A stretch of 64,000 nucleotides of DNA from Candidatus Micrarchaeota archaeon (GCA_021817505.1 JAKAUU010000016.1:2844-66843), one strand, 5' to 3'; positions 4,382-47,891 are shown, counted from the first letter of the stretch. Made by a program: numbers and translations. The notes: generated by a model from the letters alone, not told the origin.

Positions 4382-5413
4382 TCAGTAGATGGACTGCAGA
4401 GCTTCCAGTCGCATAGGCGCCACGTGCTCGTTGACCTTCTTGTCTCCGAACTTCGCCTTCACTCCAGTCACTATCGACATTACCCTTATCTCCTCGCCCA
4501 GCTCCGGAAGCATGCGTGCCCCGAAGATCACGTTTGCATCTCCTGCAACGCCTTCGGTTACCCCGTTTGCTATCGCCGTAGCCTCGCTTATGGTAAGGTT
4601 GCTGCCTCCTGTGACCTGTATGAGTGCACCCTTCGCCCCGTCATTCTCAACTGATAGCAACGGATGCGCCAGAGTCGACTTTATGACCTGCTCCACTCTG
4701 CCAGGACCCTTTCCGGATCCCAGGCTTATTACGGCTGTGCCTGTGTTTCTTACAACCGTGTTAAGATCGGCAAAGTCCAGGTTTATCAGGCTTGGGAAGT
4801 ATATCGTGTCTGATATTCCCTTTACAGCGTTGCCCGTTATATTGTCTACGAACTCAAAGGCCTTGTCCATTGGAAGGTTTGGAACGTATGAGAGCAGCTT
4901 GTCGTTCTCAACGACTATGGTGCAGTCGGCTTCCTTGTTCAGGCGCTCTATGCCCCACTCTGCCTTTATCTTCCTGCTCCTCTCAAGCGCAAATGGATAC
5001 GTGACAGTCGCTATTACCGTTGCGCCTACCTCGCGTGCTATGTGTGCGACTATAGGAGCTGAACCTGTTCCTGTCCCTCCTCCCATGCCTGCAGCGATGA
5101 AGACCAGGCTGTAACCCTCAAGGGCCTGCCTTATCTCCTCCTTGCTGACCTCTGCACACTTTTCAGCTACCTCTGGGAAGCCGCCTGCCCCCAGGCCATT
5201 TGTTATGCTCTTTCCTATGAGCAGCTTCTTGTCAGCCTTTATTATGTTCAGATGTGCTATATCTGTGTTTATAGCTATCTTGTCAGCGCTCTGCATGCCG
5301 TATTTGGATAGCCTGTTGACAAGGTTGCTACCCTGTCCTCCGCAACCCACAACCGCTATCCTCGGCTTGAAGGCATCATAGTCGAACTGCTCGTTTCCCA
5401 TTCTCGCACCCAT
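4382..5413 (-). CDS. ftsZ: Cell division GTPase FtsZ, paralog B
   Basis: GCGGQGSN P-loop region, tubulin signature GGGTGTGSAP, and T7-loop region LINLDFADL. Confidence 0.9.
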   Translation of the reverse strand: MGARMGNEQFDYDAFKPRIAVVGCGGQGSNLVNRLSKYGMQSADKIAINTDIAHLNIIKADKKLLIGKSITNGLGAGGFPEVAEKCAEVSKEEIRQALEGYSLVFIAAGMGGGTGTGSAPIVAHIAREVGATVIATVTYPFALERSRKIKAEWGIERLNKEADCTIVVENDKLLSYVPNLPMDKAFEFVDNITGNAVKGISDTIYFPSLINLDFADLNTVVRNTGTAVISLGSGKGPGRVEQVIKSTLAHPLLSVENDGAKGALIQVTGGSNLTISEATAIANGVTEGVAGDANVIFGARMLPELGEEIRVMSIVTGVKAKFGDKKVNEHVAPMRLEALQSIY

Positions 5414-5437: not shown

Positions 5438-6487
5438 TCAAATGAGATCCAAGTCATACTTCGCAGATTTTTCCTCGCTGCTGAACTTTCCGGCTATGGA
5501 TGAGCCCTTGACTCCGGTTACTATGGCCACTATCTCTATCTGGCCTTCGTAGCCTGGAATTATCCTTGCTCCCCACTTTATGTTTGCCTTAGGGTCCATG
5601 CGTTCGGTTATTATCTCTCCTGCGTGTATTGCGTCTCCGAGGCTCAGGTCAGATGCTCCTGATATGTGGATCAGTGCACCCTTCGCGTTCTCGAAGTCCA
5701 CGTCAAGCAGCTTGTTCTTTATTACAGCTTCTGCCGCGGCAGTTACCTTCTCGTTGCCCTTTCCTACTCCTACGGATATGAAGCCTACGTCTCCGCTGCC
5801 CATGATCGACCTTACGTCTGCAAAGTCTATGTTGATCAGGCTCGGCTGCGTTATTGTCCAGACAAGTCCGCCTATTGCCTTTGCAAGTATGTCATCTGCA
5901 ACTGCGAATGCCTCGTTCATTGGCAGGTTAGGAACCAGCTTTACGAGCCTGTTGTTATCCAGGATTATAACGCTGTCGCTGAACTTTCTCAGCTTCTGGA
6001 TACCCTCCTCTGCCTTTACCTTTCTTACTCTTTCGAGGTCGAATGGGTATGTTACCATCGCGACTACTATAGCGCCCTGCTCCTTTGCTATCTGGGCCAC
6101 TACCGGCATTGCGCCTGTTCCTGTTCCTCCTCCCATACCTGCGCACAGGAAGACGAGTTGCGCCCCATTTATTACCTCTTCTATTGCCTGCCTGTCAGCC
6201 TCTGCTGCCTTGGCTCCTACTTCAGGAGTTCCACCGGCTCCGAGACCTCTTGTCAGGCTCTTTCCAATAAGGACCTTCTTTATTCGGTCGTCAAGCATCT
6301 TAAAGTGCTGAACGTCCGTGTTAATTGCTACGAGATCCGTACCTTTAACACCGCTCTTCAGCAGCCTCTGTGCTGTGTTGTTGCCACCTCCTCCTACCCC
6401 TATGGTGACTATTTTTATCTGGGGTGTAGAGTTGCTGTCCAGTTCTTCGCTCTTATTCGCAAGAAACTCGCTAGAGAAATCCACCAT
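5438..6487 (-). CDS. ftsZ: Cell division GTPase FtsZ, paralog A
   Basis: GVGGGGNN, tubulin signature GGGTGTGAMP, LINIDFADV, and a C-terminal tail ending KYDLDLI. It lies directly upstream of the second ftsZ with a 24-nt gap. Confidence 0.9.
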   Translation of the reverse strand: MVDFSSEFLANKSEELDSNSTPQIKIVTIGVGGGGNNTAQRLLKSGVKGTDLVAINTDVQHFKMLDDRIKKVLIGKSLTRGLGAGGTPEVGAKAAEADRQAIEEVINGAQLVFLCAGMGGGTGTGAMPVVAQIAKEQGAIVVAMVTYPFDLERVRKVKAEEGIQKLRKFSDSVIILDNNRLVKLVPNLPMNEAFAVADDILAKAIGGLVWTITQPSLINIDFADVRSIMGSGDVGFISVGVGKGNEKVTAAAEAVIKNKLLDVDFENAKGALIHISGASDLSLGDAIHAGEIITERMDPKANIKWGARIIPGYEGQIEIVAIVTGVKGSSIAGKFSSEEKSAKYDLDLI

Positions 6488-11401: not shown

Positions 11402-14400
11402 TTACTTGTTCTTGTTTCTAAAGTAAACAAAAAGTGCAACGAACACTATGATAACAGTTATTGCGATAACTGCCTGGAATGCATAGCCAGACTGCGGCTG
11501 AGAGGCAGCAGAGGCTGTTGATGCGGTGTCCACAGGAGCGATTGTGGTCGTCGTAGTAGAATTAAACTTGCTTGCTGGTGCAGACTCGAATACAGCTATG
11601 ACTGGATCTGATGGGGCGGCAAATGTTATGGTGCATGCTGCGATATCTAATATGAATGGGGTTATCTCCTGCCATGTACCGTTCCTCAGAATGAATGGGA
11701 TCATATCAGATGCTGGGATGCTGCAGTTATAGTGCATTGTTAGGTTTGCTGAGATATTCCTGTTGCTGAATGTGTAGTTTACCGCTTTTATCGCAGACAT
11801 ATTTGAAAGAGAAGGTATATCGGCAGGTGCAGCTGCGGCAGTCATGCTGAAGCAGGATGCGGTTACCGGTTTTATGGCGAAGGTCACGTTTAGCGATGGA
11901 TAATTTATTAAATATCCGGAGGTGTCATTGCATATCTGTTCCACTGCTCCTGACGAAGTTACGGAATGGGGCGTTGTTGGGATGGTGGTTATTGTAGTGG
12001 AGGTTGAGGTGATTGAACTGGTAGCAGTTATTGTTCCTGGAAGATGCCCGAAGAAGCCTGTTGATCCCCCAGCATATGGATTTGATACCTGAGTGCCAGT
12101 ATGTATTGTGACGGTGTCTCCTGCGGAACATGCGATTGCATTTGGAGTCGAACTGTCTATCACTTCATAGGAATAAGTTGCCTGTGCTGTAGGGGATGCA
12201 ACCAGTGAATTTGTATTCTGTCCTGCCATCTGGTCTGCAGTTGTGCATGTTGGAGCAGATGCTCCTGCAACTGAGTACCAGTTGTAAGTATATGGTGATG
12301 TTCCTCCAACTGCATTCGCGGTTAATGTTACACTCTGTCCTGGATTTATTATCGGGCCGGCAGGGACGATGGCCCCTGCTGTAATTGCGTTGTTTACAGT
12401 TATTACGTCATTCGATGAGAGTTGTGTCTCAGGGGTTGATGCACTGTCAGTTACACCTATGCAGTATGAGTTTGTTGAGGTTGGACTGACTGTTATGCTG
12501 TTTGATGTTGCCGTTACTGATGAATATGTCGCAAGTACATTTCCACTGTCCTGTGAGCAGGTATTTCCTGTTAATCCAGTATACCACTTTACCGTATAAT
12601 CAGGGGTTCCTCCTGACCATGAAGCAGTAAATGATACTGACTGGCCGCTGTCTATAGTCGGGTTTGAAGGGCTGATTGCCGGGCTGGATAGCACAGGATT
12701 GACTGTTATCTCAGAGGTTACGTCATGGATCTGGATATTGGTGTTGATGATTACTGCGTTGTTGCCGTTCAGGTTTGTCACATAGGCATAGGTTCCGGAA
12801 GGAGCAATGGCCATCCCTTCCGGTGCGTTGAATCCATATGTTATTATGCCTGCTATCGTATTTGTTGCAGCGTTGACGATTGCAACGTTCCTGTTGTCAT
12901 TGATATAAGCATATTCTCCCGTAGGGGAGAAGGCCATTCCAGGATAGGTAATTATATTGGTTATTGCACCTATCACGGTGTTTGTGGCAGTGTTTATTAC
13001 CACAATGTTATTGGTGTTGAAGTTTTCAACATATGCATATGCTCCTGAAGGAGAGAAGGCCACCGATTGAGGGGAGGAAAACCCTGAAGTGATTGCATTT
13101 GTCACAGTATTGGTGGCCGTGTTGATTATCACTACATTGTTTGAGCCTGAATTAGTTATATATGCATATGTTCCTGATGGAGAGAAGGCCACGCCTTGTG
13201 GTCCTTTGATGCTTGCCGATATCGAATTAACTACTGAATTCGTGGCAGTGTCGATGATCGCAACATTGCCACCGTACTGGTTTGTAACATAGGCATAGGT
13301 TCCTGATGGAGAGAAGGCTATGTAACTTTGGCCGTTGAATCCTGAATTTATTACGCCGGTTACTGTATTAGTAGACGTACTGACAATCACAATATTGGTC
13401 GGGATTGTTCCGCTGCAGGCCTCGTTGCAGTTGGCTATATAAGCATAGGTTCCTGATGGAGAGAAGGCAACACCTGAAGGATAACTGAATGGAGAGGTTA
13501 TGGCACTTACGATTGAATATGCACTAATGGCATTGTCAGTCACGAACGCACAGTAGTAGGTGTTCGCCGCAGGGGTAACCGGGGAGAATGTTACTGAAGT
13601 GGCAGAAAGTCCTATGTCCTGTTGGATAAGTGTGGACTGCTGGGTGCATGCAGAGGTTGCTGAAGAGTATAGTGATGCGCTGTAGGTAGGGGTTCCTCCT
13701 GACCATGAAGCAGTAAATGATACTGACTGGCCGCTGTCTATAGTCGGGTTTGAAGGGCTGATTGCCGGGCTGGATAGCACAGGATTGACTGTTATCTCTG
13801 ATGTGACACTCTTTGTTGTCGGCACGCCGGTGTTGATTATAACTAGGACATCTGAGTATATGTTTGTCATGTATGCATAGGCGCCGGTAGGAGATATTGC
13901 AACGCCGCCGCGGTTGTCGAATGGAGAGTGTATTGTGCCGACTATCGAATTTGTGGCAGTGTTGATTATTGAGATGTTGCCCCAGAAGCTTGTTGCATAT
14001 GCATACCCTCCTGAAGGGGCAAAGTAAACGCCGTCGGGGTTGGTAAGTCCTGATCCTGTTACCACACCAACCACAGTGTTTGTGGCAGTGTCGATGATTA
14101 CCGCGTTGTAGGCATTGAAGTTCGTAACATAGGCATAGGTTCCGGAGGTGGAGAAGGCCACGCCAGTAGATGCACTGAATCCGGCAGTTATCGAACCGGT
14201 TACGGAGTTGGTAGCAGTATTGATTATCACTATATTGCCATTGCCTGTTGTACCGCATGACGGACCGCAATTCGCCACGTATGCATAGGTTCCTGATGGA
14301 GAGAAGGATATCCCATATGGGGATGAAAATCCGGAAGATATCGTTCCTGTCACCGTATTCGAAGCAGTGCTGATTATAGATATTGTGTTGCTGCCCATAT

Positions 14401-15292
14401 TTGTTACATAAGCATAGGTTCCTGATGGAGAGAAGGCTATTCCGGCAGGACCATCAAATCCAGAATTTATTGAATTTACAACGGAATTGGTGGCCGTGTT
14501 GATTATCAGCACGTTGTCTGCACCAGATCCTCCGCAGCTTGTCTGGCCGTTTATCTCGTTATTTCCGCTGTTGCAGTTTGCAACATAGGCATAGGAGCCG
14601 TCTGGTGAGAATGCAACCCCGTACAACAGGTTGCCGAGGGAAAAGCTTCTAGATATCGAATATGCATTTGTCGAATTGTCAGTCACGAACGCACAGTAGT
14701 AGGTGTTCGCCGCAGGGGTAACCGGGGAGAATGTAGCAGAACTTGAGGCGAGTCCAGTAACCTGTTCTACCATGGTGGATTGCTGGTTGCAGGTGCTTGT
14801 TGGGGATGAGTACAGCGATACGCTGTAGGTAGGGCTTCCTCCTGTCCATAAAGCAGTGAAGGTCACTGACTGGCCGCTGTCTATTGATGAACTGGATGGG
14901 AAGAGCTTCGGTGTTCCGAGGTCCGGGTTTACGGTTATCACGTCATTCGATGAGAGCTGCGTTGTAGGAGTCGCATCCGTTACACCTATGCAGTATGAGT
15001 TTGTGGTTGTGGGATTGACAACTATGGAATTCGAAGCTGAAGTTATCCCATTGTATACAGCTATCTGGTTCGCTGAATCTTCTGCACAGGTGTTCCCTGA
15101 CGGGCCCGTGTACCACACTGCATTGTAAGGGCTAGTACCTCCGGACCATGTTGAGTATAGTATGGTTGATTGGCCCGTATCTATGGGCGGATTAGTCGGA
15201 GAGATAGAAGGCGTGCCCAGTGTTGCGGCTACGATGCTTGAAGTTGCTAAAAGAATTATCAAGGTTAAGATAACGGGCAATACGCTACGCAT
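11402..15292 (-). CDS. Giant cell-surface protein: signal peptide, five Ig-like modules, two YVTN-type beta-propellers, S/T-rich linker, C-terminal TM anchor
   Basis: 1296 aa. N-terminal signal peptide MRSVLPVILTLIILLATSSIVAA. Many GVAFSPSGTYAYVTN / INTATNSV blade repeats in two blocks. Recurring modules of the form ISPSNPTIDSGQSVSFTASWSGGTP...NTYYCAFVTDN. C-terminal hydrophobic helix AVIAITVIIVFVALFVYF followed by RNKNK. Confidence 0.85.
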   Translation of the reverse strand: MRSVLPVILTLIILLATSSIVAATLGTPSISPTNPPIDTGQSTILYSTWSGGTSPYNAVWYTGPSGNTCAEDSANQIAVYNGITSASNSIVVNPTTTNSYCIGVTDATPTTQLSSNDVITVNPDLGTPKLFPSSSSIDSGQSVTFTALWTGGSPTYSVSLYSSPTSTCNQQSTMVEQVTGLASSSATFSPVTPAANTYYCAFVTDNSTNAYSISRSFSLGNLLYGVAFSPDGSYAYVANCNSGNNEINGQTSCGGSGADNVLIINTATNSVVNSINSGFDGPAGIAFSPSGTYAYVTNMGSNTISIISTASNTVTGTISSGFSSPYGISFSPSGTYAYVANCGPSCGTTGNGNIVIINTATNSVTGSITAGFSASTGVAFSTSGTYAYVTNFNAYNAVIIDTATNTVVGVVTGSGLTNPDGVYFAPSGGYAYATSFWGNISIINTATNSIVGTIHSPFDNRGGVAISPTGAYAYMTNIYSDVLVIINTGVPTTKSVTSEITVNPVLSSPAISPSNPTIDSGQSVSFTASWSGGTPTYSASLYSSATSACTQQSTLIQQDIGLSATSVTFSPVTPAANTYYCAFVTDNAISAYSIVSAITSPFSYPSGVAFSPSGTYAYIANCNEACSGTIPTNIVIVSTSTNTVTGVINSGFNGQSYIAFSPSGTYAYVTNQYGGNVAIIDTATNSVVNSISASIKGPQGVAFSPSGTYAYITNSGSNNVVIINTATNTVTNAITSGFSSPQSVAFSPSGAYAYVENFNTNNIVVINTATNTVIGAITNIITYPGMAFSPTGEYAYINDNRNVAIVNAATNTIAGIITYGFNAPEGMAIAPSGTYAYVTNLNGNNAVIINTNIQIHDVTSEITVNPVLSSPAISPSNPTIDSGQSVSFTASWSGGTPDYTVKWYTGLTGNTCSQDSGNVLATYSSVTATSNSITVSPTSTNSYCIGVTDSASTPETQLSSNDVITVNNAITAGAIVPAGPIINPGQSVTLTANAVGGTSPYTYNWYSVAGASAPTCTTADQMAGQNTNSLVASPTAQATYSYEVIDSSTPNAIACSAGDTVTIHTGTQVSNPYAGGSTGFFGHLPGTITATSSITSTSTTITTIPTTPHSVTSSGAVEQICNDTSGYLINYPSLNVTFAIKPVTASCFSMTAAAAPADIPSLSNMSAIKAVNYTFSNRNISANLTMHYNCSIPASDMIPFILRNGTWQEITPFILDIAACTITFAAPSDPVIAVFESAPASKFNSTTTTTIAPVDTASTASAASQPQSGYAFQAVIAITVIIVFVALFVYFRNKNK
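12602..12712 (-). repeat. 111-bp intragenic direct repeat, identical to 13688-13798
   Basis: Base-by-base comparison shows both copies read aggggttcctcctgaccatgaagcagtaaatgatactgactggccgctgtctatagtcgggtttgaagggctgattgccgggctggatagcacaggattgactgttatctc. They encode the duplicated VNPVLSSPAISPSNPTIDSGQSVSFTASWSGGTP segment. Confidence 0.9.
13532..13591 (-). repeat. 60-bp intragenic direct repeat, identical to 14675-14734
   Basis: Both copies read attgtcagtcacgaacgcacagtagtaggtgttcgccgcaggggtaaccggggagaatgt, encoding FSPVTPAANTYYCAFVTDN. Confidence 0.9.
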
Positions 15293-20906: not shown

Positions 20907-21998
20907 GTGCTTGTGTTGAAAAGGGAGGCGTTCAGTGGCAGCGTCACATACTTCCAGATAATGGATGAGAACGGTAATGTAGACAAGGAGCTGATGCCGA
21001 ATTATGTTGATGATAATAAGATACTTGAGATGCTCAAGTACATGGTCCTTGCGCGCGAGATAGATGCTAAGGCCCTGTCGCTTCAGAGACAGGGGCGTGC
21101 AGTAACATACGCTCCGCTTCTTGGGGAAGAGGCGACACAGGTCGGTGCCGCAATGGCGCTGAGGAACAACGATTACTTTGTGCCAAACTTCAGGCAGCAT
21201 GCAGTCTATCTTGTCCGCGGGCTGCCCATGGAGCTTTACTTCCTTTACTGGCGCGGCTATGAAGAGGCGCAGAAGATACCTGAAAATGTAAAGGGATTGC
21301 CGGTGATTGTTCCTGTTTCTACGCAGATGCCGCATGCGGCAGGCATCGCTTTTGCGCAGAAATACCAAAAGACAGGCTCAGCAGTGGTCGCTTTCGTCGG
21401 AGACGGAGGTACCTCGGAGGGCGATTTCTACGAAGCGATAAACTTCGCAGGCGCATGGAATGCCCCTCTTATAACAATAATAGAGAATAACTCATGGGCG
21501 ATATCCGAACCTACAAGGATGCAGACCGCAGCGCAGACTCTTGCGCAGAAGGGAATAGCGGCAGGGATAAAGAGGATAATACAGGTTGACGGCAACGACG
21601 TTATTGCGGTTTACAAGGCAGTAAGGGAAGCGATAGAGGCATCTGATGGAGGTCCGGCAGTGATAGAGGCGCTCACTTATAGGATGGGTCTCCATACCAC
21701 TGCTGATGACCCCACTAAATACAGGCCTGATTCTGAACTTGAGAAGTGGAAGCCCAAGGACCCTATACTAAGGGTAAAAAAATATCTCTCGCAGAAGGGC
21801 TTGTGGAATGATGATATTGAGAAGGCATTCCTTGATGAGAACATGAAGAAGATAGATGAGGCGATAGACAAGGCAGAGAGGTTTGTCCCTGATCCTAAGA
21901 GCATGTTCGAGAATGTATACAGCTTCGTTCCTGATGTTCTGAAGAAGGAGATGGACGAAGCAGTCGGAGAGAATTTCTGGCAGGGTGATTCAGAATGA
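20907..21998 (+). CDS. 2-oxoacid dehydrogenase E1 component, alpha subunit (TPP-dependent)
   Basis: TPP-binding region GDGGTSEGDFYEAINFAGAWNAPLITIIENN. Its stop overlaps the E1 beta start (ATGA at 21995). Confidence 0.9.
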   Translation: MLVLKREAFSGSVTYFQIMDENGNVDKELMPNYVDDNKILEMLKYMVLAREIDAKALSLQRQGRAVTYAPLLGEEATQVGAAMALRNNDYFVPNFRQHAVYLVRGLPMELYFLYWRGYEEAQKIPENVKGLPVIVPVSTQMPHAAGIAFAQKYQKTGSAVVAFVGDGGTSEGDFYEAINFAGAWNAPLITIIENNSWAISEPTRMQTAAQTLAQKGIAAGIKRIIQVDGNDVIAVYKAVREAIEASDGGPAVIEALTYRMGLHTTADDPTKYRPDSELEKWKPKDPILRVKKYLSQKGLWNDDIEKAFLDENMKKIDEAIDKAERFVPDPKSMFENVYSFVPDVLKKEMDEAVGENFWQGDSE

Positions 21999-22960
21999 TG
22001 TCGAATATGGTTACCGCTTTGAACAGTGCGCTTAGCAGCATACTTGAGAATGACAGGAATGCAGTCGTACTTGGGGAGGATGTTGGAAAGGATGGCGGGG
22101 TCTTCAGGGTCACAGACGGCCTTTCCGAGAAATTCGGGGAGAACCGCGTAATAGATACGCCGCTCGCCGAATCGGGCATAATAGGCACGTCGATAGGCAT
22201 GGCGATATCGGGCATGCGCCCCATTCCAGAGATACAGTTTGCAGGCTTCATGTTCCTTGGTTTCAGCCAGCTGGTAAACCATGCTGCAAGATACAGGAGC
22301 AGGAGCAGAGGCTCCTTCAAGGTGCCGATGATAGTGAGGACGCCGGTAAGCGGAGGGGTGCGCACGCTTGAACACCATTCCGAAAGTCCTGAGACCTACT
22401 ACTCGCACATGGGCGGCCTCATAGTGGTTGAGCCGTCCGGACCTTATGATGCAAAAGGGCTTATGATAAAGGCGTCAAAGCTTGATGACCCTGTCGTCTT
22501 CCTTGAACCTACAAAACTCTACAGGTTATTCAAGGAGGAGGTCCCTGAGGAGCCGTATGAGGTTGAGATAGGAAAGGCAAAGACCATTAGAGAGGGGAGT
22601 GAGCTGAGCATAATAACCTATGGGACCATGGTGCCTGTTGTGAAGAGTGTTGTTGAGAAGAGGAAGATTGATGCCGACATAATAGACCTGAGGACGATAA
22701 ACCCTATCGATGAAAACAGTATACTGGAAAGTGTTAAGAAGACCGGAAGGGCGCTTATAGTACATGAGGCATCCCTGAGCTTCGGGGTAGGCGCGGAGGT
22801 ATCGGCGAGAATAGCCGAGAAGGCAATCTTCGACCTTAAGGCGCCTATAATAAGAGTGGCATCGCACTCCCTTCCGTACCCATTCCCAGGTTATGAGAAA
22901 TATTTCATACCTAATGAGCTTAAGGTTTCAAAGGCTATTGACAGGATAATGTCGGTGTAA
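21995..22960 (+). CDS. 2-oxoacid dehydrogenase E1 component, beta subunit
   Basis: VIDTPLAESGIIGTSIGMA and transketolase-like pyrimidine-binding and C-terminal domains; 321 aa. Confidence 0.9.
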   Translation: MMSNMVTALNSALSSILENDRNAVVLGEDVGKDGGVFRVTDGLSEKFGENRVIDTPLAESGIIGTSIGMAISGMRPIPEIQFAGFMFLGFSQLVNHAARYRSRSRGSFKVPMIVRTPVSGGVRTLEHHSESPETYYSHMGGLIVVEPSGPYDAKGLMIKASKLDDPVVFLEPTKLYRLFKEEVPEEPYEVEIGKAKTIREGSELSIITYGTMVPVVKSVVEKRKIDADIIDLRTINPIDENSILESVKKTGRALIVHEASLSFGVGAEVSARIAEKAIFDLKAPIIRVASHSLPYPFPGYEKYFIPNELKVSKAIDRIMSV

Positions 22961-22962
22961 TC

Positions 22963-24180
22963 TTGAAGGAGATAAAATTCGTTGATGTTGGAGAGGGGAT
23001 AACGGAAGGCCATCTGCAGAAGTGGCTGGTCAAGGATGGCGATACCGTAAAGGAGGACCAGGCGGTCGCCCAGATAGAGACGGACAAGGCGATAGTGAAC
23101 ATACCTTCACCGATATCCGGCAGGATAAAGATCAATGCAAAGGAGGATACTGATGTTAAGGTAGGAGACGTGCTTGCAACTGTAGGGGAAGGAGCTGCTG
23201 AAGAGGAGCACAAGAGTGCCCCTGCTGCTACAAAGGGCGCGCAGCAGGAAGCTAAAAAACAGGACACAGCACCTTCTCAGGCAAAAGCTGTTAATGAGGT
23301 ACTCGCTACGCCTTATGTAAGGAAGCTTGCCCGCGACCTTGGAGTGGATCTTGCTTCGGTGCATGGTACAGGGCCGCAAGGCAGGGTCCTTGAGAATGAT
23401 CTCAAGAGTGCTGCGAATCATGCAACCGCTCCTAAGAAGCTTATTCCTAAATTCTCCGAGGTCCTTGAGGAACAGCACTCTGATGAGATAGAGAGGGTGC
23501 CGATGTCGCAGCTCAGGAAGACGATTGCAAAGAACATGGAGCTCTCATGGACAATACCCCGTGCGACGCATATGGATCTGGCAGATGCCAAGCATCTTTC
23601 AGATATTGTGAAAAGGGAGAAGGCGAATGCGGAGAAGTCAGGCTTCAAGCTGACCTTCCTGCCGTTCATAATAAAGGCTGCTGTCGAGGCTCTTAAGGAG
23701 AATCCAGGATTCAATTCAAGCTACGACCATGATAGACAGGAGATAATACTGAAGAAGTATTATAATATAGGGCTTGCTGCAGAATCCCCTGATGGCCTGA
23801 AGGTAGTGGTCATAAGGAATGCCGACAAGAAGAGCATATCTGAGATTGCAAAGGAGATAATGGAGCTGCACAAGAAGGTAGTCGAGAACACGATATCGAT
23901 AGATGAGATGCGCGACGGCACATTCACCATAACCAACATAGGCAGCCTTGGCGGGGGATACCTCTCAGTGCCTATGATAAATTATCCTGAGGTCGGCATA
24001 CTCGGGGTGCATATGATAAAGGAGGTTCCGGTAGTGGAAGACGGGAAGATAGTCATAGGGAGGCAGCTGCCTTTCTCGCTCGTCTTCGACCATAGGGTTG
24101 TCGATGGCGCGGAAGCGGTGAAATTCGGAAATTCTTTCAAGAGATATATTGAGGACCCGGAGTTCCTCGAGATGCTATGA
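22963..24180 (+). CDS. Dihydrolipoamide acyltransferase (E2) with one lipoyl domain
   Basis: Lipoyl attachment site AQIETDKAIVNIPSP, an E3-binding segment (ATPYVRKLARDLGVDL), and the catalytic motif FDHRVVDG. TTG start. Confidence 0.9.
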   Translation: MKEIKFVDVGEGITEGHLQKWLVKDGDTVKEDQAVAQIETDKAIVNIPSPISGRIKINAKEDTDVKVGDVLATVGEGAAEEEHKSAPAATKGAQQEAKKQDTAPSQAKAVNEVLATPYVRKLARDLGVDLASVHGTGPQGRVLENDLKSAANHATAPKKLIPKFSEVLEEQHSDEIERVPMSQLRKTIAKNMELSWTIPRATHMDLADAKHLSDIVKREKANAEKSGFKLTFLPFIIKAAVEALKENPGFNSSYDHDRQEIILKKYYNIGLAAESPDGLKVVVIRNADKKSISEIAKEIMELHKKVVENTISIDEMRDGTFTITNIGSLGGGYLSVPMINYPEVGILGVHMIKEVPVVEDGKIVIGRQLPFSLVFDHRVVDGAEAVKFGNSFKRYIEDPEFLEML

Positions 24181-24181
24181 T

Positions 24182-25546
24182 ATGGTGATGGGCTCCATAC
24201 CTGAAGAGGTAGATATAGCAGTCATAGGGGGAGGAGTTGGCGGCTATGTCGCCGCGATACGCGCTGCAGAGCTCGGCAAGAGCGTAACGATAGTGGAGAA
24301 GGATAAGCTTGGGGGACACTGCCTCAATTATGCATGCATACCCTCAAAGACGATAATACACATAGCTGACCTATTTTACTCTGCAACTCACTCCCAGAAC
24401 CTTGGAATATCAGGTTCCTTGAGCATAGATGCGAAGAGGATGCATGAGTGGAGGATAAGCGTCTCGCAGACTCTTGAGAAAGGGGTCGAGGGGCTCTGCA
24501 GGGCAAACGGGATAGAGATAGTTAAGGGAGAGGCCACCTTCCTCAATTCGAATACGCTTCAGCTTACGAACGGCACCTCGCTCGACTTCAAGAAGGCGAT
24601 AATTGCGACCGGATCCGTTCCGTCTTCTCTCAAAGGCTTTGAATTCAACGGCAGGAATATAATAGACTATAAGCAGGCGCTCTCGCTTGATTACATACCG
24701 AAGAGCATTGCCATAATAGGCGCAGGCTATGTCTCTGTTGAGATCGCAGGGATGTTTGCAAAGCTCGGTTCCTCGGTCCATGTCATAGCAAGGTCCGATG
24801 TGCTCTCAAGGTTCGATCCCGAAGCCGTAGCTTTGGTAAAGAAGAGGCTGGCGAACCTCGGTGCAGTTGTGCATCTTAATGCTGCGCCGTCATCTTATGA
24901 TGGAAAGGTTCTCAGGCTTTCCAGCGGGGAGGAGATACCTGCAGAGGTTGTCGTGGTTGCAATAGGGCTTGTGCCTTATACGGACGGCCTTGAGCTGCAT
25001 AACACAAAGGTCGCTGTTGACGGGAGAGGATTTGTCTCTGTCGATTCATCGCTGCAGACAACTGACCAGAACATACTTGCTATAGGCGATGTAGTCGGGG
25101 AACCGATGCTTGCGCACAAGGCGATAAGACAGGGAGTCATCGCTGCCGAGAAGGCTTCAGGATTGAATTCAGGATTCGACAACATAGTCATACCTGCCGT
25201 AATATTCTCGGACCCGGAGATTGCGATAGCAGGCAGCCTTGATGCAAAGAACGTGAAGAAGTTTCCGATGAGCGCAGTCGGAAGGGGCATTGCGCTTGAC
25301 AGAAAAGAGGGCTTTGTCAAGATGGCTTACGATGATGATAACATAGTCAGGGGTATTGAGATAGTCGGACAGGATGCGAATGCGATGATTGCAGAGGCGG
25401 CGCTTGCGATAGAGATGGGCGCGACTCTCGAAGACATAGCGGATACGATACATCCGCATCCCACATTCTCAGAAGCGGTGCAGGAAGCTGCTGAAGCGGC
25501 GCTCGGAAGGCCTCTTCACTTTTATTACGGAAAGGGGAGCAGATGA
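24182..25546 (+). CDS. lpdA: Dihydrolipoamide dehydrogenase (E3)
   Basis: FAD fold VIGGGVGGY, redox-active disulfide CLNYACIPSK, and C-terminal HPHPTFSE. The start is placed at ATG 24182, 2 nt after the E2 stop; the tracked ORF begins at 24149 inside E2. Confidence 0.9.
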   Translation: MVMGSIPEEVDIAVIGGGVGGYVAAIRAAELGKSVTIVEKDKLGGHCLNYACIPSKTIIHIADLFYSATHSQNLGISGSLSIDAKRMHEWRISVSQTLEKGVEGLCRANGIEIVKGEATFLNSNTLQLTNGTSLDFKKAIIATGSVPSSLKGFEFNGRNIIDYKQALSLDYIPKSIAIIGAGYVSVEIAGMFAKLGSSVHVIARSDVLSRFDPEAVALVKKRLANLGAVVHLNAAPSSYDGKVLRLSSGEEIPAEVVVVAIGLVPYTDGLELHNTKVAVDGRGFVSVDSSLQTTDQNILAIGDVVGEPMLAHKAIRQGVIAAEKASGLNSGFDNIVIPAVIFSDPEIAIAGSLDAKNVKKFPMSAVGRGIALDRKEGFVKMAYDDDNIVRGIEIVGQDANAMIAEAALAIEMGATLEDIADTIHPHPTFSEAVQEAAEAALGRPLHFYYGKGSR

Positions 25547-33604: not shown

Positions 33605-34933
33605 ATGAAGGGGCAATCAGCCATAGAGTTTATATCCGTCTATGGGTTCATGCTGATAATTGCCGCATTGTTCATCGTACTCGTAATCCTGTTTGCATTT
33701 TCTGCCCAGGGTGCCATCCAGACATCGAAATGCAACGGCTTCACCGGATTCTACTGCACAAGCGCACAGGTTGTCTCTAACACAGTGTCAAAGAATTCGA
33801 TAATATTCCTGGCATTGGACTCGGAGCAGAGCGTTCCGATAAACGTGATAGGGGTAAATTTCATAGTGGGCAACTCGATATATTCAGGCAGATGCACTCC
33901 TTCACTCGCCACGCCCACTGTCCATATAACCTGCACTGCGGCCATGAGCGGCTTTACCAGGCAGGGGATCCAGGTAATAGGCTCGTATATAGTCAATGCG
34001 CAGTACTGCAATTCGCCATTGTATAACGTCAGCATAAAGGACTGTGCATATGACAATGTGACATACAATGGTGAATTTTCAACCTATGCTTCGGATCATC
34101 TGAGCCTTGGATTTGAGAATAATTCTGTTGCTCCGCAGATAGTGGGCGTGATAAACGGGCTTAATCTTCCGGAAGGCATTGCGGTGTCTCCTTCTGGAAC
34201 ACGCGCATACGTGGCGGAACCGTACTCTAGCTTCTATGGGGAGATAGCCGTGATAAGCATCCCTGCAAACTCGGTATCGGGTTCATTCACTTCCGGCCTG
34301 GCCAATCCTTCAGGCGTTGCCGTAGGGACTTCAGGAAGCTATGTGTATGCAACTAATCTTAACTTTTTTGGCGCTACTAAGTATATCGAGGTTGTGAATA
34401 CGGCTACCGGATCCGGCACGACCCAGGTGGATATGTCAGACCAGGAAGCGGCTATTGCAATGGTGCCTTCAGGGGCTTATGCATATGCAAGCGGATATTC
34501 AAACCAGGTGGAGATACTTAATACGGGTACGAACAGCATAACAGGTACGGTTAACATCGGTTATTTCGCATACTATCCAGGCATAGCGATATCTCCGGGT
34601 GGCAAGTATGCATATATTACCAACAATAACGGAAATAACGTACTGATACTTAACACAGCCACAGGTACAGTATCCGGCGCGATAACCTCACCTTCCATAT
34701 TATCTCCCGAAGGGGATGCAATCTCCCCTGATGGAAAGTATCTGTATATAGCGAATGCTGGAGATGAGAACCTGATCATAGTGGACATCGCCACCGGAAA
34801 GATAGTGAACAGCGTTAGCGCAGGATTCAACGGACCGTACGGGGTCGCATTCTCCCCTACAGGATCTCTTGTATATGTCACGAACCAGTATGGCGGCAAT
34901 GTAGTGATAATAAACCCGGGCTCGTATAATTAG
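33605..34933 (+). CDS. Class III signal peptide (type IV pilin-like N-terminus) fused to a YVTN-type beta-propeller
   Basis: MKGQSAIEFISVYGFMLIIAALFIVLVILF is a pilin-like N-terminus. The C-terminal half contains 6-7 blades (GIAVSPSGTRAYVAE, GIAISPGGKYAYITN, GDAISPDGKYLYIAN, GVAFSPTGSLVYVTN). Confidence 0.8.
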   Translation: MKGQSAIEFISVYGFMLIIAALFIVLVILFAFSAQGAIQTSKCNGFTGFYCTSAQVVSNTVSKNSIIFLALDSEQSVPINVIGVNFIVGNSIYSGRCTPSLATPTVHITCTAAMSGFTRQGIQVIGSYIVNAQYCNSPLYNVSIKDCAYDNVTYNGEFSTYASDHLSLGFENNSVAPQIVGVINGLNLPEGIAVSPSGTRAYVAEPYSSFYGEIAVISIPANSVSGSFTSGLANPSGVAVGTSGSYVYATNLNFFGATKYIEVVNTATGSGTTQVDMSDQEAAIAMVPSGAYAYASGYSNQVEILNTGTNSITGTVNIGYFAYYPGIAISPGGKYAYITNNNGNNVLILNTATGTVSGAITSPSILSPEGDAISPDGKYLYIANAGDENLIIVDIATGKIVNSVSAGFNGPYGVAFSPTGSLVYVTNQYGGNVVIINPGSYN

Positions 34934-43358: not shown

Positions 43359-45095
43359 ATGGAGATACTCAGGTATGATCTGGCGGTGCTTGGAAGCGGG
43401 ATAGGCGGATTCACATCCGCAATACATGCGAGCCACCACTCTAAAGGAAGGCTGAAGGTAGCGGTAATATCGAAATTGCATGCGATGAGGAGCCACTCTG
43501 TCTCTGCAGAGGGAGGCATATCCGGAGTGCTCTACCATGGCAAGGGAGATTCTGAGAGCCTGCATGCATATGACACGATAAAAGGTTCGGATTATCTTGC
43601 GGATCAGGATGCGGTAGAGCTTCTTGTAAAGAACGCACCAAAGGAGATAAAGTTCTTTGACCATATAGGGGTACCGTGGAACAGGGGAGAAGATGCAGTG
43701 ATACAGCAGCGTCCGTTTGGAGGCATGAGCATACCGCGAACAGTATTTGCTGCAGACAAAACAGGATTCTTCATGATGCGCGCCCTCTACGACTATACGC
43801 TGCAGCTGAAGAACGTGGATATACTGCATGAGACCTTCGCGACTGCGATACTGATGGACGGGAAGAGAGCAGCAGGCATATTCGTGATGGACCTTGCAAC
43901 CCGTGAGACGAAGCTCATAGAGGCCAAGTCCATAATAATAGCAACTGGCGGTTTCTCAAAGGTTTATGGCTTCACCACCACCTCGCATTCAACCACGGGA
44001 GACGGGATAGCGCTCGCATACAAGGCTGGGCTCTCCCTCAAGGACATGGAATTCGTGCAGTTCCATCCGACTGGGCTTATACCTAGCGGCATACTGATAA
44101 CAGAGGCAGCGAGAGGAGAGGGAGGTTACCTGAGGAACTCAGAAGGAAAGAGGTTCATGGAGGACTATGCCAAGAGCGTGATGGAGCTCGCACCCAGGGA
44201 CATAGTCTCAAGGGCGATAATGAGCGAGATTGCAAAGGGCAAAGGGGTAATGCATCAGGAATCGGGATTTGAGCACGTATGGCTTGACCTGCGCCATCTG
44301 GACAATGCAAAGATAGATGAGCGTCTGCCGATGATAAAGGATATTACGATAAAGATGCTTGGGATAGACCCGTCAAAGGAGCAGATACCGGTAAGGCCGG
44401 TAGCCCACTTCACAATGGGCGGCATAAATACCGACATTAAAGGAAGGGCGATGTTCAGTGCAAGGAAGCCTGCCGAGGGAGTATGGGCTGTTGGGGAGTG
44501 CGGATGCGTAAGCGTTCACGGAGCCAACAGGCTGGGCAGCAACTCCCTGAGCCAGTGTTCGGTATGGGGCAGGATAGCAGGCATTGAAGCTGCGGAGCAT
44601 GCGATGAAGGCAGGCAAGGCAGACGGCAAGAGCCTTCATGCAAAAGCAGAAGAGGAGGAGCTCAGGATAATAGAATTGATTGAAAGAACGGAGGGATCGG
44701 ATCCTTACCAGATAAGGAAGAGCCTTAACTCGATTATGGACTCGATGGTTTATGTTTACAGGAAAGAGGCTGAGCTGAAAAGGGCAAAGGCGGCGATAGC
44801 AAAGCTCAGGAATGAGTGCAGGAGCATCGTTGTCAACGACAAGAGCAGCATCTTCAACACGAACCTGAGGGATGCGCTTGAGACCTGCAACCTCGTCGAA
44901 CTTGCAGCAGTGGTAGTCGAGGGTGCGATACGCAGGAAGGAGAGCAGGGGAGCGCATGCGATGGTTGAGCATCCGAAGAGGGATGACAAAAGATGGCTCA
45001 AGCACACAGTTGCAGCAAGCAAAGGTAACGGGATAGGCATAAGCTACATTCCCGTAAAGATTACAAAGTGGCAACCGCAGGAGAGGAAGTATTGA
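43359..45095 (+). CDS. sdhA: Succinate dehydrogenase/fumarate reductase flavoprotein subunit
   Basis: FAD fold VLGSGIGG, covalent-FAD histidine context RSHSVSAEGG, FHPTG, and ECGCVSVHGANRLGSNSL. Confidence 0.9.
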   Translation: MEILRYDLAVLGSGIGGFTSAIHASHHSKGRLKVAVISKLHAMRSHSVSAEGGISGVLYHGKGDSESLHAYDTIKGSDYLADQDAVELLVKNAPKEIKFFDHIGVPWNRGEDAVIQQRPFGGMSIPRTVFAADKTGFFMMRALYDYTLQLKNVDILHETFATAILMDGKRAAGIFVMDLATRETKLIEAKSIIIATGGFSKVYGFTTTSHSTTGDGIALAYKAGLSLKDMEFVQFHPTGLIPSGILITEAARGEGGYLRNSEGKRFMEDYAKSVMELAPRDIVSRAIMSEIAKGKGVMHQESGFEHVWLDLRHLDNAKIDERLPMIKDITIKMLGIDPSKEQIPVRPVAHFTMGGINTDIKGRAMFSARKPAEGVWAVGECGCVSVHGANRLGSNSLSQCSVWGRIAGIEAAEHAMKAGKADGKSLHAKAEEEELRIIELIERTEGSDPYQIRKSLNSIMDSMVYVYRKEAELKRAKAAIAKLRNECRSIVVNDKSSIFNTNLRDALETCNLVELAAVVVEGAIRRKESRGAHAMVEHPKRDDKRWLKHTVAASKGNGIGISYIPVKITKWQPQERKY

Positions 45096-45514
45096 TGGAG
45101 ATAAAATCGACATATGATATGAGGGGAAGGCAGAGGAATGTGCTTAGACTCTTGCATTTCGACAGGGAGGGGTTAGCGCACATAATAGCTTACAGGATAC
45201 TGGTATTCCTCTGCATAATAACAGGTATAGTTGCCATTTACTCTCTTCTATCGGGCAGCATATTCTTCCTTGGCCTGACAAAAGCCCTCTTTGCGATAGT
45301 CTGGCTGCTCTTCGGCATAGAGCTTTACTCCGTATACAAGGCCTTCGGCATAATCTCTACAAAAGGAATAGTCTTCGGAAGGCTTAACGAATCTTTTGTC
45401 AATTCGGAGATAAAGAAGAGCAATTGGCAGGGTCTGGTAAAGGCAGGAGCGCCTATGCTCTTAGTGGTATGGTATGCGCTCTTCGTAGCCTTTGCAGTGG
45501 TGGTTTTGTTATGA
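45095..45514 (+). CDS. Small 3-TM membrane protein, putative SDH membrane anchor subunit
   Basis: 139 aa from ATG 45095, which overlaps the sdhA stop (TGATG). Three hydrophobic helices, with His residues in LLHFDREGLAHIIAY. It sits between sdhA and sdhB, and its stop overlaps the sdhB start (ATGA). Confidence 0.55.
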   Translation: MEIKSTYDMRGRQRNVLRLLHFDREGLAHIIAYRILVFLCIITGIVAIYSLLSGSIFFLGLTKALFAIVWLLFGIELYSVYKAFGIISTKGIVFGRLNESFVNSEIKKSNWQGLVKAGAPMLLVVWYALFVAFAVVVLL

Positions 45515-46512
45515 AAAGGGATTCTCGATTTATGATCCTGCTCTATGCGGGGATGGTCCTTGTGCCATTGTTGCTCTTTGCATATCTCGTTGCAGCCATT
45601 GCTTACCATTCTGCAGAGACGCTCATGCTCGGGATCGCGGCCCTCTGGATGATCATATTCGGGATAGTCGGTTCTATAGAGATATACGCGCATGGAAGGA
45701 ATCCTGAAGAAAGGCTGCCGATGCTTAAAGGAAATGATATCAAAAAAGGGCTTGAGTCCGAGAGGGGCAGGCGCCCCAAAGGAGCAGAAGAGGTAACTGT
45801 GAGGATAAAGCGCTTCAATCCCCAGACCAAGAGATTCGATAATGAATCTTACTCTGTTTACGAAGACAGGCTGGCCACCGTTCTCGATACGCTTCTTAAG
45901 ATAAAGAGCCAGCATGACAATACGCTCTCCATGAGATACAGCTGCAGGATGGGCATATGCGGCTCCTGCGGGATGGTCGCGAACGGCAAGCCGATACTCG
46001 CATGCGAGACCAATCTTCTTTCGCAGCTCGATGAGGATAAGAGCATAACCGTAGAGCCTATGCACGGCCATCCTGTGCTGAAGGACCTTGTGACCGATTT
46101 CGACGACTTCTTTGCAAAGCATGAGAGCGTTGAACCGCATCTCTACAGGAAGGACAAGGTTGAGCAGTACTCGACGGACAAGGAGTACAGGCAGACCAAG
46201 AGAGAGGTGAATCAATTCCTGCCTTACTCGTACTGCATAATGTGCGGCTTGTGCATGGATGCCTGCCCTGTTGTTAACTCCAATACCGAATTCGTCGGGC
46301 CGCAGGCACTCTCGCAGGTCTACAGGTACTATAAGGATTCCAGGGACCAGAACGGGAAGCGCAGGCTGCTTGACTCGGACAATCTGCATGGCGCGTGGGG
46401 ATGCGAGTTCTCAGGCTCATGCTCCAAGGCATGTCCTAAGGGAGTCGATCCCGCATCTGCAATACAGCTGCTGAAAGCATCGATAATCGCTGATTTTGGT
46501 GAGAAGGAATGA
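45511..46512 (+). CDS. sdhB: Succinate dehydrogenase iron-sulfur subunit with an N-terminal two-TM extension
   Basis: All three cluster motifs are present: CRMGICGSCGMVANGKPILAC, CIMCGLCMDACP and CEFSGSCSKACP. They are preceded by about 88 aa containing two hydrophobic helices (FMILLYAGMVLVPLLLFAYLVAAIAY; LMLGIAALWMIIFGIVGSIEIY). The start is placed at ATG 45511. Confidence 0.85.
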   Translation: MKRDSRFMILLYAGMVLVPLLLFAYLVAAIAYHSAETLMLGIAALWMIIFGIVGSIEIYAHGRNPEERLPMLKGNDIKKGLESERGRRPKGAEEVTVRIKRFNPQTKRFDNESYSVYEDRLATVLDTLLKIKSQHDNTLSMRYSCRMGICGSCGMVANGKPILACETNLLSQLDEDKSITVEPMHGHPVLKDLVTDFDDFFAKHESVEPHLYRKDKVEQYSTDKEYRQTKREVNQFLPYSYCIMCGLCMDACPVVNSNTEFVGPQALSQVYRYYKDSRDQNGKRRLLDSDNLHGAWGCEFSGSCSKACPKGVDPASAIQLLKASIIADFGEKE

Positions 46513-47891
46513 GATATAGAAAGGAAAGGGACGTCCTTGGGATTGTCAACATACCTGCAGACGCGTATTACGGTTCGGAGACGATGCGTGCATACAACAA
46601 CTTCCAGATATCCGGGATAAAGGTCTCCGGGGAGCTTGTACATGCATACATAATAGTCAAGAAGGCAGCCGCATCTGCGAACATGAAGATAGGCAAGCTC
46701 GATAGCAGGAAGGGCAACGCGATAATCAGGGCATGCGACATGCTTCTTTCAGGAAAGCACTCTGAAAATTTTGTTCTTGACGTCTTTCAGGCAGGAGCTG
46801 GCACCAGCATAAACATGAATGTTAATGAAGTGATAGCGAATGTGGCCATAGAACTCCTTGGCGGCAAAAAAGGCAATTATAGAATGGTACACCCTAATGA
46901 CGATGTCAACATGTCGCAGTCTACAAACGACACGATGCCAACGGCAATGCGCATAGCCACTTATTTCATGATAAAGAGGCATCTTCTCCCCCAGATGGAC
47001 GCTTTGGCAGCTTCGATAGACAGGAAGAGCAGAGAGTTCAAGGGGATAATAAAACTGGGAAGGACGCATCTGCAAGATGCGGTGCCGATAATGCTTAATG
47101 AGGAGTTTTCCTCCTACTTATACGCGGTGAAGAGTTCGATTGACTTCGTAGAAGAAGCGAATGCTAAGATGCTGAAGCTCCCTATCGGGGGGACAGCAGT
47201 AGGCACTGGCATCAATGCAGGCAGTGAGTACAAAAATGCAGTGATAAAGGAGATAAGAAAGCTTACAGGGGAGAGATTCTCGCTCTTCCCGAGCCCTTAT
47301 GGGCCTATGTCGAACAAGCTTGACGAATTGGAGGTAAGCGCGTCGCTGAGGGAGTGCGCAACCTCTCTAAACAAATTCGCAAACGACCTGCGACTGCTGA
47401 ACTCGGGCCCAAGAGGAGGGATAAACGAGATAAGGCTGCCCGCGGTGCAGCCAGGATCCTCAATAATGCCCGGGAAGATAAACCCGAGCATGGCGGAGAT
47501 GATGAACATGGTATGCTTCCAGGTCATCGGCAATGACCTTGTGATAAGCGAGGCTGCGAATGCTGGGCAGCTCGAGCTTAATGTCTATATGCCTGTGATG
47601 ATCTTCAATCTTTTGTTCTCGATAAATATACTTGCAAACGGTATGAAGGCATTCCGTGAGAGATGCGTGAACGGAATAACTGCAAATGACAGGAGGATAA
47701 AGGAGAATCTGCAGAACGATCTGTCAATAGCAACAGCGCTTACCCCCTACATAGGCTATGCAAAGGCTGCTCAGATAGCGAGAAAGGCATTCCTGGAAGG
47801 GAAGAGCGTCATGCAGATATGCATCGAGATGAAGGTTCTTGACAGGAAGAAGCTTGAGAAGGTACTGAATCCTAAGAACGCAGTCAGGTGA
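46509..47891 (+). CDS. Class II fumarate hydratase / aspartate ammonia-lyase family enzyme
   Basis: Fumarate-lyase signature GSSIMPGKINP, and the N-terminal pattern DVLGIVNIPADAYYGSETMRAYNNF. Its start overlaps the sdhB stop (ATGA). FumC and AspA cannot be distinguished by eye. Confidence 0.85.
   Translation: MRYRKERDVLGIVNIPADAYYGSETMRAYNNFQISGIKVSGELVHAYIIVKKAAASANMKIGKLDSRKGNAIIRACDMLLSGKHSENFVLDVFQAGAGTSINMNVNEVIANVAIELLGGKKGNYRMVHPNDDVNMSQSTNDTMPTAMRIATYFMIKRHLLPQMDALAASIDRKSREFKGIIKLGRTHLQDAVPIMLNEEFSSYLYAVKSSIDFVEEANAKMLKLPIGGTAVGTGINAGSEYKNAVIKEIRKLTGERFSLFPSPYGPMSNKLDELEVSASLRECATSLNKFANDLRLLNSGPRGGINEIRLPAVQPGSSIMPGKINPSMAEMMNMVCFQVIGNDLVISEAANAGQLELNVYMPVMIFNLLFSINILANGMKAFRERCVNGITANDRRIKENLQNDLSIATALTPYIGYAKAAQIARKAFLEGKSVMQICIEMKVLDRKKLEKVLNPKNAVR

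Follow-up and report, generated by a model that had tools for sequence, protein, structure and literature searches.

A 64,000-nucleotide stretch of DNA from a Candidatus Micrarchaeota archaeon (GCA_021817505.1, JAKAUU010000016.1:2844-66843), here called the window and numbered from its first letter, carries on its plus strand an operon for succinate dehydrogenase or fumarate reductase (complex II) whose membrane anchor is the subject of this study. The chain of four genes begins with that of the flavoprotein, sdhA/frdA (43359-45095, 578 aa), continues with a gene for an unannotated family of proteins with three transmembrane (TM) helices, here termed anchor 1 (45095-45514, 139 aa), and with sdhB (45511-46512, 333 aa), whose product bears an N-terminal two-helix hairpin, and ends with a gene for a lyase of the class II fumarase/aspartase family (46509-47891, 460 aa). 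Consecutive genes overlap: the sdhA stop codon TGA (45093-45095) runs into the anchor 1 ATG at 45095 (TGATG), the anchor 1 stop codon TGA (45512-45514) into the sdhB ATG at 45511 (ATGA), and the sdhB stop codon (46510-46512) into the lyase ATG at 46509 (ATGA), through which the lyase gene is translationally coupled to sdhB. This order, the coordinates, and the overlaps had been described in an initial annotation made from the sequence without database searches, and all were confirmed. A mechanical list of open reading frames (ORFs) also offers longer versions that start upstream, from GTG 45068 for anchor 1 and from TTG 45424 for SdhB; we took the ATG starts, giving 139 and 333 residues, because the homologues begin at ATGs. 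The same locus is found, identical, on at least 17 independently assembled contigs from different samples, and the genomes closest to the window are metagenome-assembled genomes (MAGs) labelled Candidatus Micrarchaeota.

The complex II core, made up of SdhA and the last 238 residues of SdhB, is canonical. SdhA matches FAD_binding_2 (3e-105) and Succ_DH_flav_C (7e-38) in Pfam and PRK06069 (825.7 bits) and sdhA_frdA_Gneg (723.6 bits, cutoff 567) in NCBIfam. Its residues 42 to 52 (MRSHSVSAEGG) follow the pattern R-S-H-[ST]-x-x-A-x-G-G and include the histidine for covalent binding of flavin adenine dinucleotide (FAD), with a Glu at the position of Escherichia coli FrdA E49 (AAEGG in FrdA), where E. 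coli SdhA has Gln (SAQGG). In E. coli, the residue here is said to tilt the enzyme towards fumarate reduction. The nearest PDB chains to SdhA are that of Mycobacterium smegmatis Sdh2 (6lum_A, 448 bits) and then E. coli FrdA (426 bits). The Fe-S domain of SdhB (residues 96-333 plus the stop codon, 45796-46512) is recognized as Fer2_3, which begins at residue 96, and Fer4_8 in Pfam, and the NCBIfam matches are dhsB (221.8 bits, cutoff 88) and PRK05950 (247.5 bits, cutoff 228). The motif set is complete, as initially annotated, with three cysteine motifs (C145x4C150x2C153...C165, C242xxC245xxC248xxxC252P, and C298x5C304x3C308P), and the [2Fe-2S], [4Fe-4S], and [3Fe-4S] motifs are invariant across 119 SdhB relatives. 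The SdhB profile reached E. coli FrdB in the PDB with 229 bits, in an alignment that starts from profile position 89, and Foldseek found FrdB 6awf_F (E=7.5e-21, TM-score 0.89 on the target, 238 aligned columns), with FrdB/SdhB chains matching at E of about 1e-20; the identity of the Fe-S domain is 39% to E. coli FrdB versus 32% to E. coli SdhB. Its quinone-site positions are FrdB-like as well (PVVNSNTEF, GCEFSGSC) and have no equivalents of Trp164 and His207 of E. coli SdhB.

Ahead of this core, the same ORF encodes a membrane module, the hairpin or anchor 2 (residues 1-62, 45511-45696), and a linker (residues 63-95, 45697-45795) that is variable and occurs in fused forms only. From hydropathy and the positive-inside distribution of lysine and arginine, which average over the family 2.0 at the inner N terminus, 0.1 in the outer loop, and 8.3 on the cytoplasmic linker side, the topology is two TM helices with the N terminus inside, followed by a cytoplasmic Fe-S domain. 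AlphaFold2, run with the family alignment, placed the helices at residues 5 to 31 and 33 to 59 (predicted local distance difference test score, pLDDT, 88.5), so that the two helices seen initially before the SdhB core are borne out and span the first ~62 residues; the argument that an even number of helices returns the Fe-S domain to the cytoplasmic side also agrees with the family topology. In the linker, the model has a β-strand at residues 73 to 79 (45727-45747) with a pLDDT of about 87, not a disordered stretch, and this strand may extend the sheet of the ferredoxin-like domain at the N terminus.

Among 120 SdhB relatives, Y12 (45544-45546) and P19 of the hairpin are near-invariant, and G54, E/D57 (45679-45681), and Y/F59 (45685-45687) are conserved. 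All but one of the 120 best SdhB clusters are 322 to 347 aa long, with 86 to 100% query coverage (mostly at least 94%) and 50 to 83% identity; the start of the remaining one, P0088 (258 aa), is mis-called, and the long ORF is present in its DNA. When the window genes were compared with five relatives at ~82% identity, the ratio of nonsynonymous to synonymous substitution rates (dN/dS) was 0.06 to 0.15 for hairpin codons 1 to 62, 0.25 to 0.41 for linker codons 63 to 95, which are variable yet under purifying selection, and 0.03 to 0.06 for the Fe-S domain. SdhB residues 1 to 93 gave no relevant match in Pfam or NCBIfam. A Pfam scan of 40 members of the hairpin family at E≤10 yielded scattered chance matches only and none to Sdh_cyt, Fumarate_red_C/D, or CybS, and the hairpin profile found a single, unrelated match among all PDB chains (NDUFB5, E=0.98). 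The solved SdhB/FrdB chains retrieved by Foldseek all align to the Fe-S domain only (237 to 265 columns, mostly ~240), and none has the hairpin.

Anchor 1 belongs to a family of 109 clusters at 90% identity, in which every name given is "hypothetical"; at 50% identity there are 72 representatives among 1.84 billion proteins. Its gene lies in the sdh operon at every one of 60 loci, which comprise six that encode SdhB relatives, 47 from GTDB species representatives, four from distant relatives, and the window with three near-identical copies. In the pooled alignment, H29 is conserved in 157 of 161 members, Y33 in 150, and R34 in 154 (window codons 45179-45181, 45191-45193, and 45194-45196, plus strand); W70, G91, and W126 are further conserved columns, and H29 is the sole conserved histidine column. 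The topology, again from hydropathy and from lysine plus arginine counts (family averages of 5.3 at the N terminus, 0.2 in loop 1, 5.9 in loop 2, and 0 at the C terminus), is three TM helices with the N terminus inside and the C terminus outside, and AlphaFold2 with the family alignment placed helices at residues 24 to 53, 56 to 88, and 110 to 138 (pLDDT 88.9). The gene is under purifying selection (dN/dS of 0.08 to 0.15). Thus, topology prediction returned the numbers of helices given initially for both pieces. Anchor 1 has no sequence match in Pfam, NCBIfam, or the PDB: scanning 50 members against Pfam at E≤10 gave scattered chance matches only, without Sdh_cyt, Fumarate_red_C/D, or CybS, and its profile found nothing among all PDB chains. 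Foldseek with the anchor 1 model found nothing significant in the PDB either (best E=3.2); porcine and human SdhD are among the non-significant matches, at rank 2 (E=3.6) and rank 23, respectively. In line with the initial inability to match the SdhB fusion to a known anchor type, none of the SdhC, SdhD, and FrdC families was recovered. Anchor 1 and SdhB residues ~1 to 62 are two conserved membrane modules that always accompany sdhA/sdhB, and their conservation, purifying selection, topology, and synteny in 60 loci uphold the proposal of an anchor split between a three-helix protein and two helices fused to SdhB.

The related operons fall into two forms. The hairpin is fused to SdhB at 46 of the 60 loci, as in the window, and at the other 14 it is a separate gene of 60 to 71 aa. 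The split loci, whose taxa include Marsarchaeota G1/G2, "Thermoprotei," an Acidilobaceae MAG, and a Cren7-bearing contig, have the gene order sdhA-anchor1-anchor2-sdhB, except that one distant relative has sdhA-sdhB-anchor1-anchor2. In these loci, anchor 2 ends right after the "EVYxHG" motif and sdhB (233 to 246 aa) opens immediately ahead of the VxVxRF strand from an ATG or TTG of its own and has a Shine-Dalgarno-like motif in overlap with the stop codon. The free anchor 2 proteins have the hairpin motifs Y12/GVP and FGxxGxxEVY, and the window proteins carry all motifs of the family (H29/Y33/R34, W70, G91, and W126 in anchor 1; Y12 and FGxxGxxE-x-Y in anchor 2). The four-gene form of Acidilobaceae, Marsarchaeota/Tardisphaerales, and other Thermoproteota MAGs is one of the nearest known arrangements to that of the window: it has a homologous anchor 1 (H29, Y33, W70, G91, W126) in the same operon and a homologous two-helix subunit (Y12, GxxG, E-x-Y), is likewise unannotated ("hypothetical protein"), and differs in its free two-helix protein of 60 to 71 aa and its short SdhB, while the window belongs to the derived fused clade. 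The initial annotation had named homologues with the extension as a separate, unrelated gene as evidence against its proposal; a separate gene does exist at the 14 loci, yet it is homologous to the extension, and the extension is therefore a genuine anchor subunit that became fused.

A neighbor-joining tree built from the Fe-S domain grouped the 46 fused forms into one clade nested among split forms, which indicates a single fusion event, the simplest history. The data thus point to an operon sdhA-anchor1-anchor2-sdhB in which anchor2 was fused once to sdhB and a linker of ~33 residues was gained, a fusion made possible by this gene order. At two split loci (L021 585-600 and L032 1455-1472), sdhB shares the frame of anchor 2, with nothing but a TGA and a pair of sense codons (ACG ATT and ACA GCG, respectively) between the anchor 2 ORF and the TTG start of sdhB; to judge from its sequence, this junction is of the kind where loss of a stop codon would create the fusion. 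On two contigs labelled "Candidatus Acidoferrum sp." (L005 and L030), an archaeal-type PCNA gene adjoins the archaeal fused operon, and their bacterial (Acidobacteriota) label is probably a binning error. The Acidilobaceae MAG has a second sdhA-like flavoprotein gene ~2.3 kb downstream of its split operon (L056 8649-10384), and its genome therefore probably has two complex II enzymes.

In a 2023 review, complex II is divided into six anchor classes, A to F, none of which has an anchor fused to SdhB. A survey of archaeal fusions reported only fission of SdhA and did not list an SdhB-anchor fusion, and a 2025 paper on Marsarchaeota for succinate dehydrogenase/fumarate reductase (SDH/FRD) counted just "two subunits." We found no literature description of an SdhB-anchor fusion or of Micrarchaeota SdhC/D, although the anchor survey of Karavaeva & Sousa 2023 was not covered, so a prior description is possible. 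The PDB profile searches spanned anchors of classes A, B, C, D, and F. By hhalign, both anchor profiles matched E. coli SdhC/SdhD with probabilities of ≤2% and E. coli FrdC/FrdD with probabilities of <0.3%, the single-sequence templates making this a weak test.

Each of the six classes shares something with the window system or can be told from it by a defining feature. Type A (M. smegmatis Sdh2, 6LUM, and the classical archaeal SdhABCD) includes the closest solved flavoprotein, has an archaeal distribution, and has the gene order sdhA-sdhB-anchor1-anchor2 that the one distant relative keeps. However, its anchor consists of two three-helix subunits that hold two hemes by four histidines (plus SdhF in mycobacteria), as against three plus two helices with one conserved histidine here, and neither an Sdh_cyt match in 90 members (E≤10) nor an SdhC/SdhD match in the PDB was obtained. 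With type B (Wolinella succinogenes quinol:fumarate reductase [QFR] and the succinate:quinone reductases [SQRs] of Bacillus and Chloroflexus) the window system has the total of five TM helices in common, a likeness drawn initially that stands as far as the number goes and not beyond, as there is neither homology nor the pattern of four histidines. The type B anchor is one diheme cytochrome b polypeptide with four heme-ligand histidines, whereas here there are two polypeptides and one conserved histidine; the SdhB/FrdB of type B is less similar to the window SdhB than those of types D, C, and A, and the PDB profile searches gave no match to 2BS2, 1QLB, or Chloroflexus anchor chains.

Type C (E. 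coli SQR and mitochondria) has two three-TM subunits, each with a heme b histidine in the second helix, whereas no histidine column is present in TM2 of either module here and no Sdh_cyt/CybS match was found. Type D (E. coli FrdABCD, 1KF6/1L0V) has the closest solved Fe-S subunit, the FrdA-type Glu, and two membrane modules, and the lack of a conserved histidine pair in the window family points to a probably heme-less anchor with a proximal quinone site, as in type D. FrdC and FrdD, however, are separate three-helix proteins, whereas here the helices are divided three plus two and the second module is covalently attached to the N terminus of the Fe-S subunit; no Fumarate_red_C/D match and no detectable sequence or fold similarity to FrdC/FrdD was found. 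In type E (SdhE/SdhF, monotopic), a Cys-rich CCG-domain subunit takes the place of TM helices. The sole extra gene of the window operon encodes the three-TM anchor 1, which has a single cysteine (C40) and therefore no CCG-type Cys-rich motif, and SdhB has a normal 3Fe-4S motif. Type F (M. smegmatis Sdh1) has a single multi-helix SdhC with a Rieske-type Fe-S cluster; there was no match to the chains of 7D6V and no conserved Cys/His cluster motif in either module, and among full-length SdhB/FrdB chains in the PDB, 7d6v_B is the least similar to the window SdhB by profile, with only Chloroflexus 9lay_B ranked lower by Foldseek. The 3+2-helix anchor with its second module fused to SdhB fits none of classes A to F, as had been stated initially for types A to E.

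We consider it likely that the locus encodes a membrane-bound complex II (SQR or QFR) of three polypeptides instead of four, with a five-helix, probably heme-less anchor whose hairpin is fused to SdhB. The five helices (three plus two) would together form the membrane anchor. The conserved polar residues all lie at its cytoplasmic face: H29/Y33/R34 where TM1 of anchor 1 begins (AlphaFold2, hydropathy), Y12 where the first hairpin helix begins, and E57/Y59 where the second one ends. These residues and the [3Fe-4S] end of SdhB would jointly build a single proximal quinone/quinol site, H29/Y33/R34 being its proposed contribution from anchor 1, and electrons would pass from FAD through 2Fe-2S, 4Fe-4S, and 3Fe-4S to the quinone, or in reverse. 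In E. coli, the proximal quinone site beside [3Fe-4S] is formed by SdhC S27/R31 and SdhD D82/Y83 (1NEK) or by FrdC R28/E29 (1KF6), and we take the conserved polar residues of the window proteins to occupy the same position. The anchor would then work like that of the type D fumarate reductase of E. coli, without being a detectable homologue of FrdC/FrdD, and the fusion would fix a 1:1 stoichiometry and tether the cluster-bearing [3Fe-4S] domain to the membrane. Since no histidine pair is conserved and neither second helix contains a histidine, the anchor probably holds no heme.

Some points weigh against this three-polypeptide, heme-less enzyme. The 333-aa SdhB of the source organism is known from sequence alone; the placing of the hairpin against anchor 1, like that of the quinone site, relies solely on topology and conservation; the Fe-S domain tree carries no support values; and the case for a heme-less anchor is built on the lack of conserved histidine pairs, while the window proteins have both H29 and H61. 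It is hardly conceivable that the SdhB extension is an artefact of annotation or assembly, or is left untranslated, with the true start downstream of the TM region. The short 258-aa call in the P0088 database entry and an in-frame Met at residue 71, the last of those ahead of the core (M1, M8, M15, M38, M47, M71), could be read in that way, but the P0088 DNA holds the long ORF and the M71 column is not conserved as Met, so an internal start at M71 was rejected. Amino acid conservation of the extension down to 50% identity, its low dN/dS (0.06 to 0.15), the identical locus on at least 17 contigs, and the 4-nt ATGA overlap with the upstream gene speak against an artefact as well, which is effectively refuted; from conservation, dN/dS, and synteny, we take the N-terminal extension to be real, well outside what chance would give, and translated. 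A b-type heme in the window lineage, ligated by anchor 1 H29 and SdhB H61, is improbable, and as a family trait unlikely. Besides the window protein, several split relatives ("EVFLHG," "AYVHGS") and 57 of the 120 fused ones have H61, but R, E, S, K, and other residues take its place in over half of the relatives, and Acidilobaceae-type homologues lack it. Furthermore, neither piece has a histidine within TM2, the place of the classical heme ligands, H29 and H61 lie at helix ends at the cytoplasmic interface, outside the membrane core, and the SdhB domain is nearest to a heme-less QFR. As family-wide heme ligands, the candidates noted initially in both pieces are not supported: with H21 of anchor 1 and H33 and H61 of SdhB not conserved and only H29 (157 of 161) retained, a bis-histidine heme is no feature of the family.

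The ancestry of the anchor and the direction of the reaction are further matters on which readings differ. It may well be, though we stop short of calling it probable, that the anchor is a strongly diverged classical SdhC/SdhD (FrdC/FrdD) pair, in which anchor 1 is SdhC and the hairpin is SdhD minus its third helix, the loss of which freed a cytoplasmic C terminus for fusion to SdhB. Anchor 1 has the SdhC-like topology, N terminus inside, and helix count, one distant relative has the classical gene order, porcine and human SdhD appear, without significance, in the Foldseek list, and the conserved polar residues lie at the places of the SdhC, SdhD, and FrdC residues named above; but no Sdh_cyt, Fumarate_red_C, Fumarate_red_D, or CybS match was found in the 50 anchor 1 and 40 hairpin members, and PDB profile searches, hhalign, and Foldseek were all negative, these being weak tests for short TM proteins. 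Such an origin concerns ancestry and is compatible with the proposed mechanism. We suggest, more tentatively still, a seventh anchor class, evolutionarily independent of A to F, that would be heme-less and five-helix and consist of a three-helix and a two-helix subunit, the latter fused to the Fe-S subunit in a large clade of acidophilic archaea. As for direction, the lyase matches Lyase_1 and FumaraseC_C in Pfam, and its only NCBIfam match above cutoff is the aspartate ammonia-lyase subfamily PRK12273 (607 bits, cutoff 510), while fumC_II scores 547, below its cutoff of 665. Its best PDB match is the aspartase AspB (1j3u, 458 bits), and the best fumarases are the class II fumarate hydratase 3tv2 (416 bits) and E. 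coli FumC (407 to 408 bits). The initial assignment to the fumarase family is thus right at the level of the family, but the scores are closer to aspartases, and from the sequence its substrate, and hence the direction of the pathway, are uncertain. The enzyme could be a physiological fumarate reductase, with the lyase as an aspartase that turns scavenged aspartate into fumarate to take up electrons when oxygen is low. The lyase scores, the Glu of SdhA at the FrdA E49 position, the FrdB-like SdhB, and the reported occurrence of ARMAN-type archaea in oxygen-poor niches would fit this; however, the gap between aspartase and fumarase scores is small, some relatives have a malic enzyme upstream and a fumarase-family gene downstream, like a segment of the oxidative tricarboxylic acid (TCA) cycle, published reconstructions treat SDH as electron input to a cytochrome bd chain, and the direction of complex II is not fixed by sequence alone. 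We regard a physiological fumarate reductase as rather unlikely, though the aspartate-to-fumarate-to-succinate electron sink still competes with the oxidative TCA reading.

The membrane anchor is the basis on which complex II is classified, and that of the window locus and about 160 relatives is missed by current profile libraries; therefore, reconstructions of Micrarchaeota, Parvarchaeota, and Marsarchaeota list SdhA and SdhB only, without settling how the enzyme would reach the quinone pool, or whether it does so. The anchor design described here explains why these archaea seemed to be without anchor subunits, and recognition of both anchor modules gives metabolic models a complete membrane-bound enzyme. 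Split and fused forms side by side among relatives amount to a natural experiment on complex II assembly and anchor recruitment, and bear on the question whether anchors joined a soluble SdhAB module several times independently. If heme-less, the anchor would give type D, a design otherwise of narrow distribution, a counterpart in archaea. If the seventh class is real, its Fe-S subunit would be the first electron-transfer subunit of complex II that is itself an integral membrane protein, and it would account for the "two subunits" of SDH reported in MAGs labelled Micrarchaeota, Parvarchaeota, and Marsarchaeota.

Public gene calls can obscure the fused form. In GCA_028866835.1 (L006 4345-5777), they shorten SdhB to 258 aa by an internal Met and anchor 1 to 110 aa; in the DNA, both the fused SdhB and anchor 1 are encoded at full length. 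In the window, antisense ORFs lie opposite sdhB, anchor 1, and sdhA on the minus strand (45325-46389, 354 aa; 44373-45113, 246 aa); they were rejected as genes and are most likely spurious, because they have no family matches and the sense strand is under purifying selection.

The 64-kb window has no tRNA genes by ARAGORN and no Rfam families at the gathering threshold. The genes around the locus are archaeal and include two for FtsZ and those for an ATP-dependent DNA ligase, FtsY, prefoldin, eIF-6, and a T2SSE-family ATPase. The tandem FtsZ paralogues, with Tubulin and FtsZ_C domains, stand side by side at 4382-5413 and 5438-6487 on the minus strand. A complete operon for a 2-oxoacid dehydrogenase complex, with E1 alpha, E1 beta, E2 lipoyl-acyltransferase, and E3 dihydrolipoamide dehydrogenase, occupies 20907-25546 on the plus strand and is followed by a gene with an NAD-kinase C-terminal domain. 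Weak β-propeller matches (lactonase/cytochrome-D1-like) were found in a 1,295-aa protein (11402-15292, minus strand), which has immunoglobulin-like matches in addition, and in a 442-aa protein (33605-34933, plus strand), both of which may be surface proteins.

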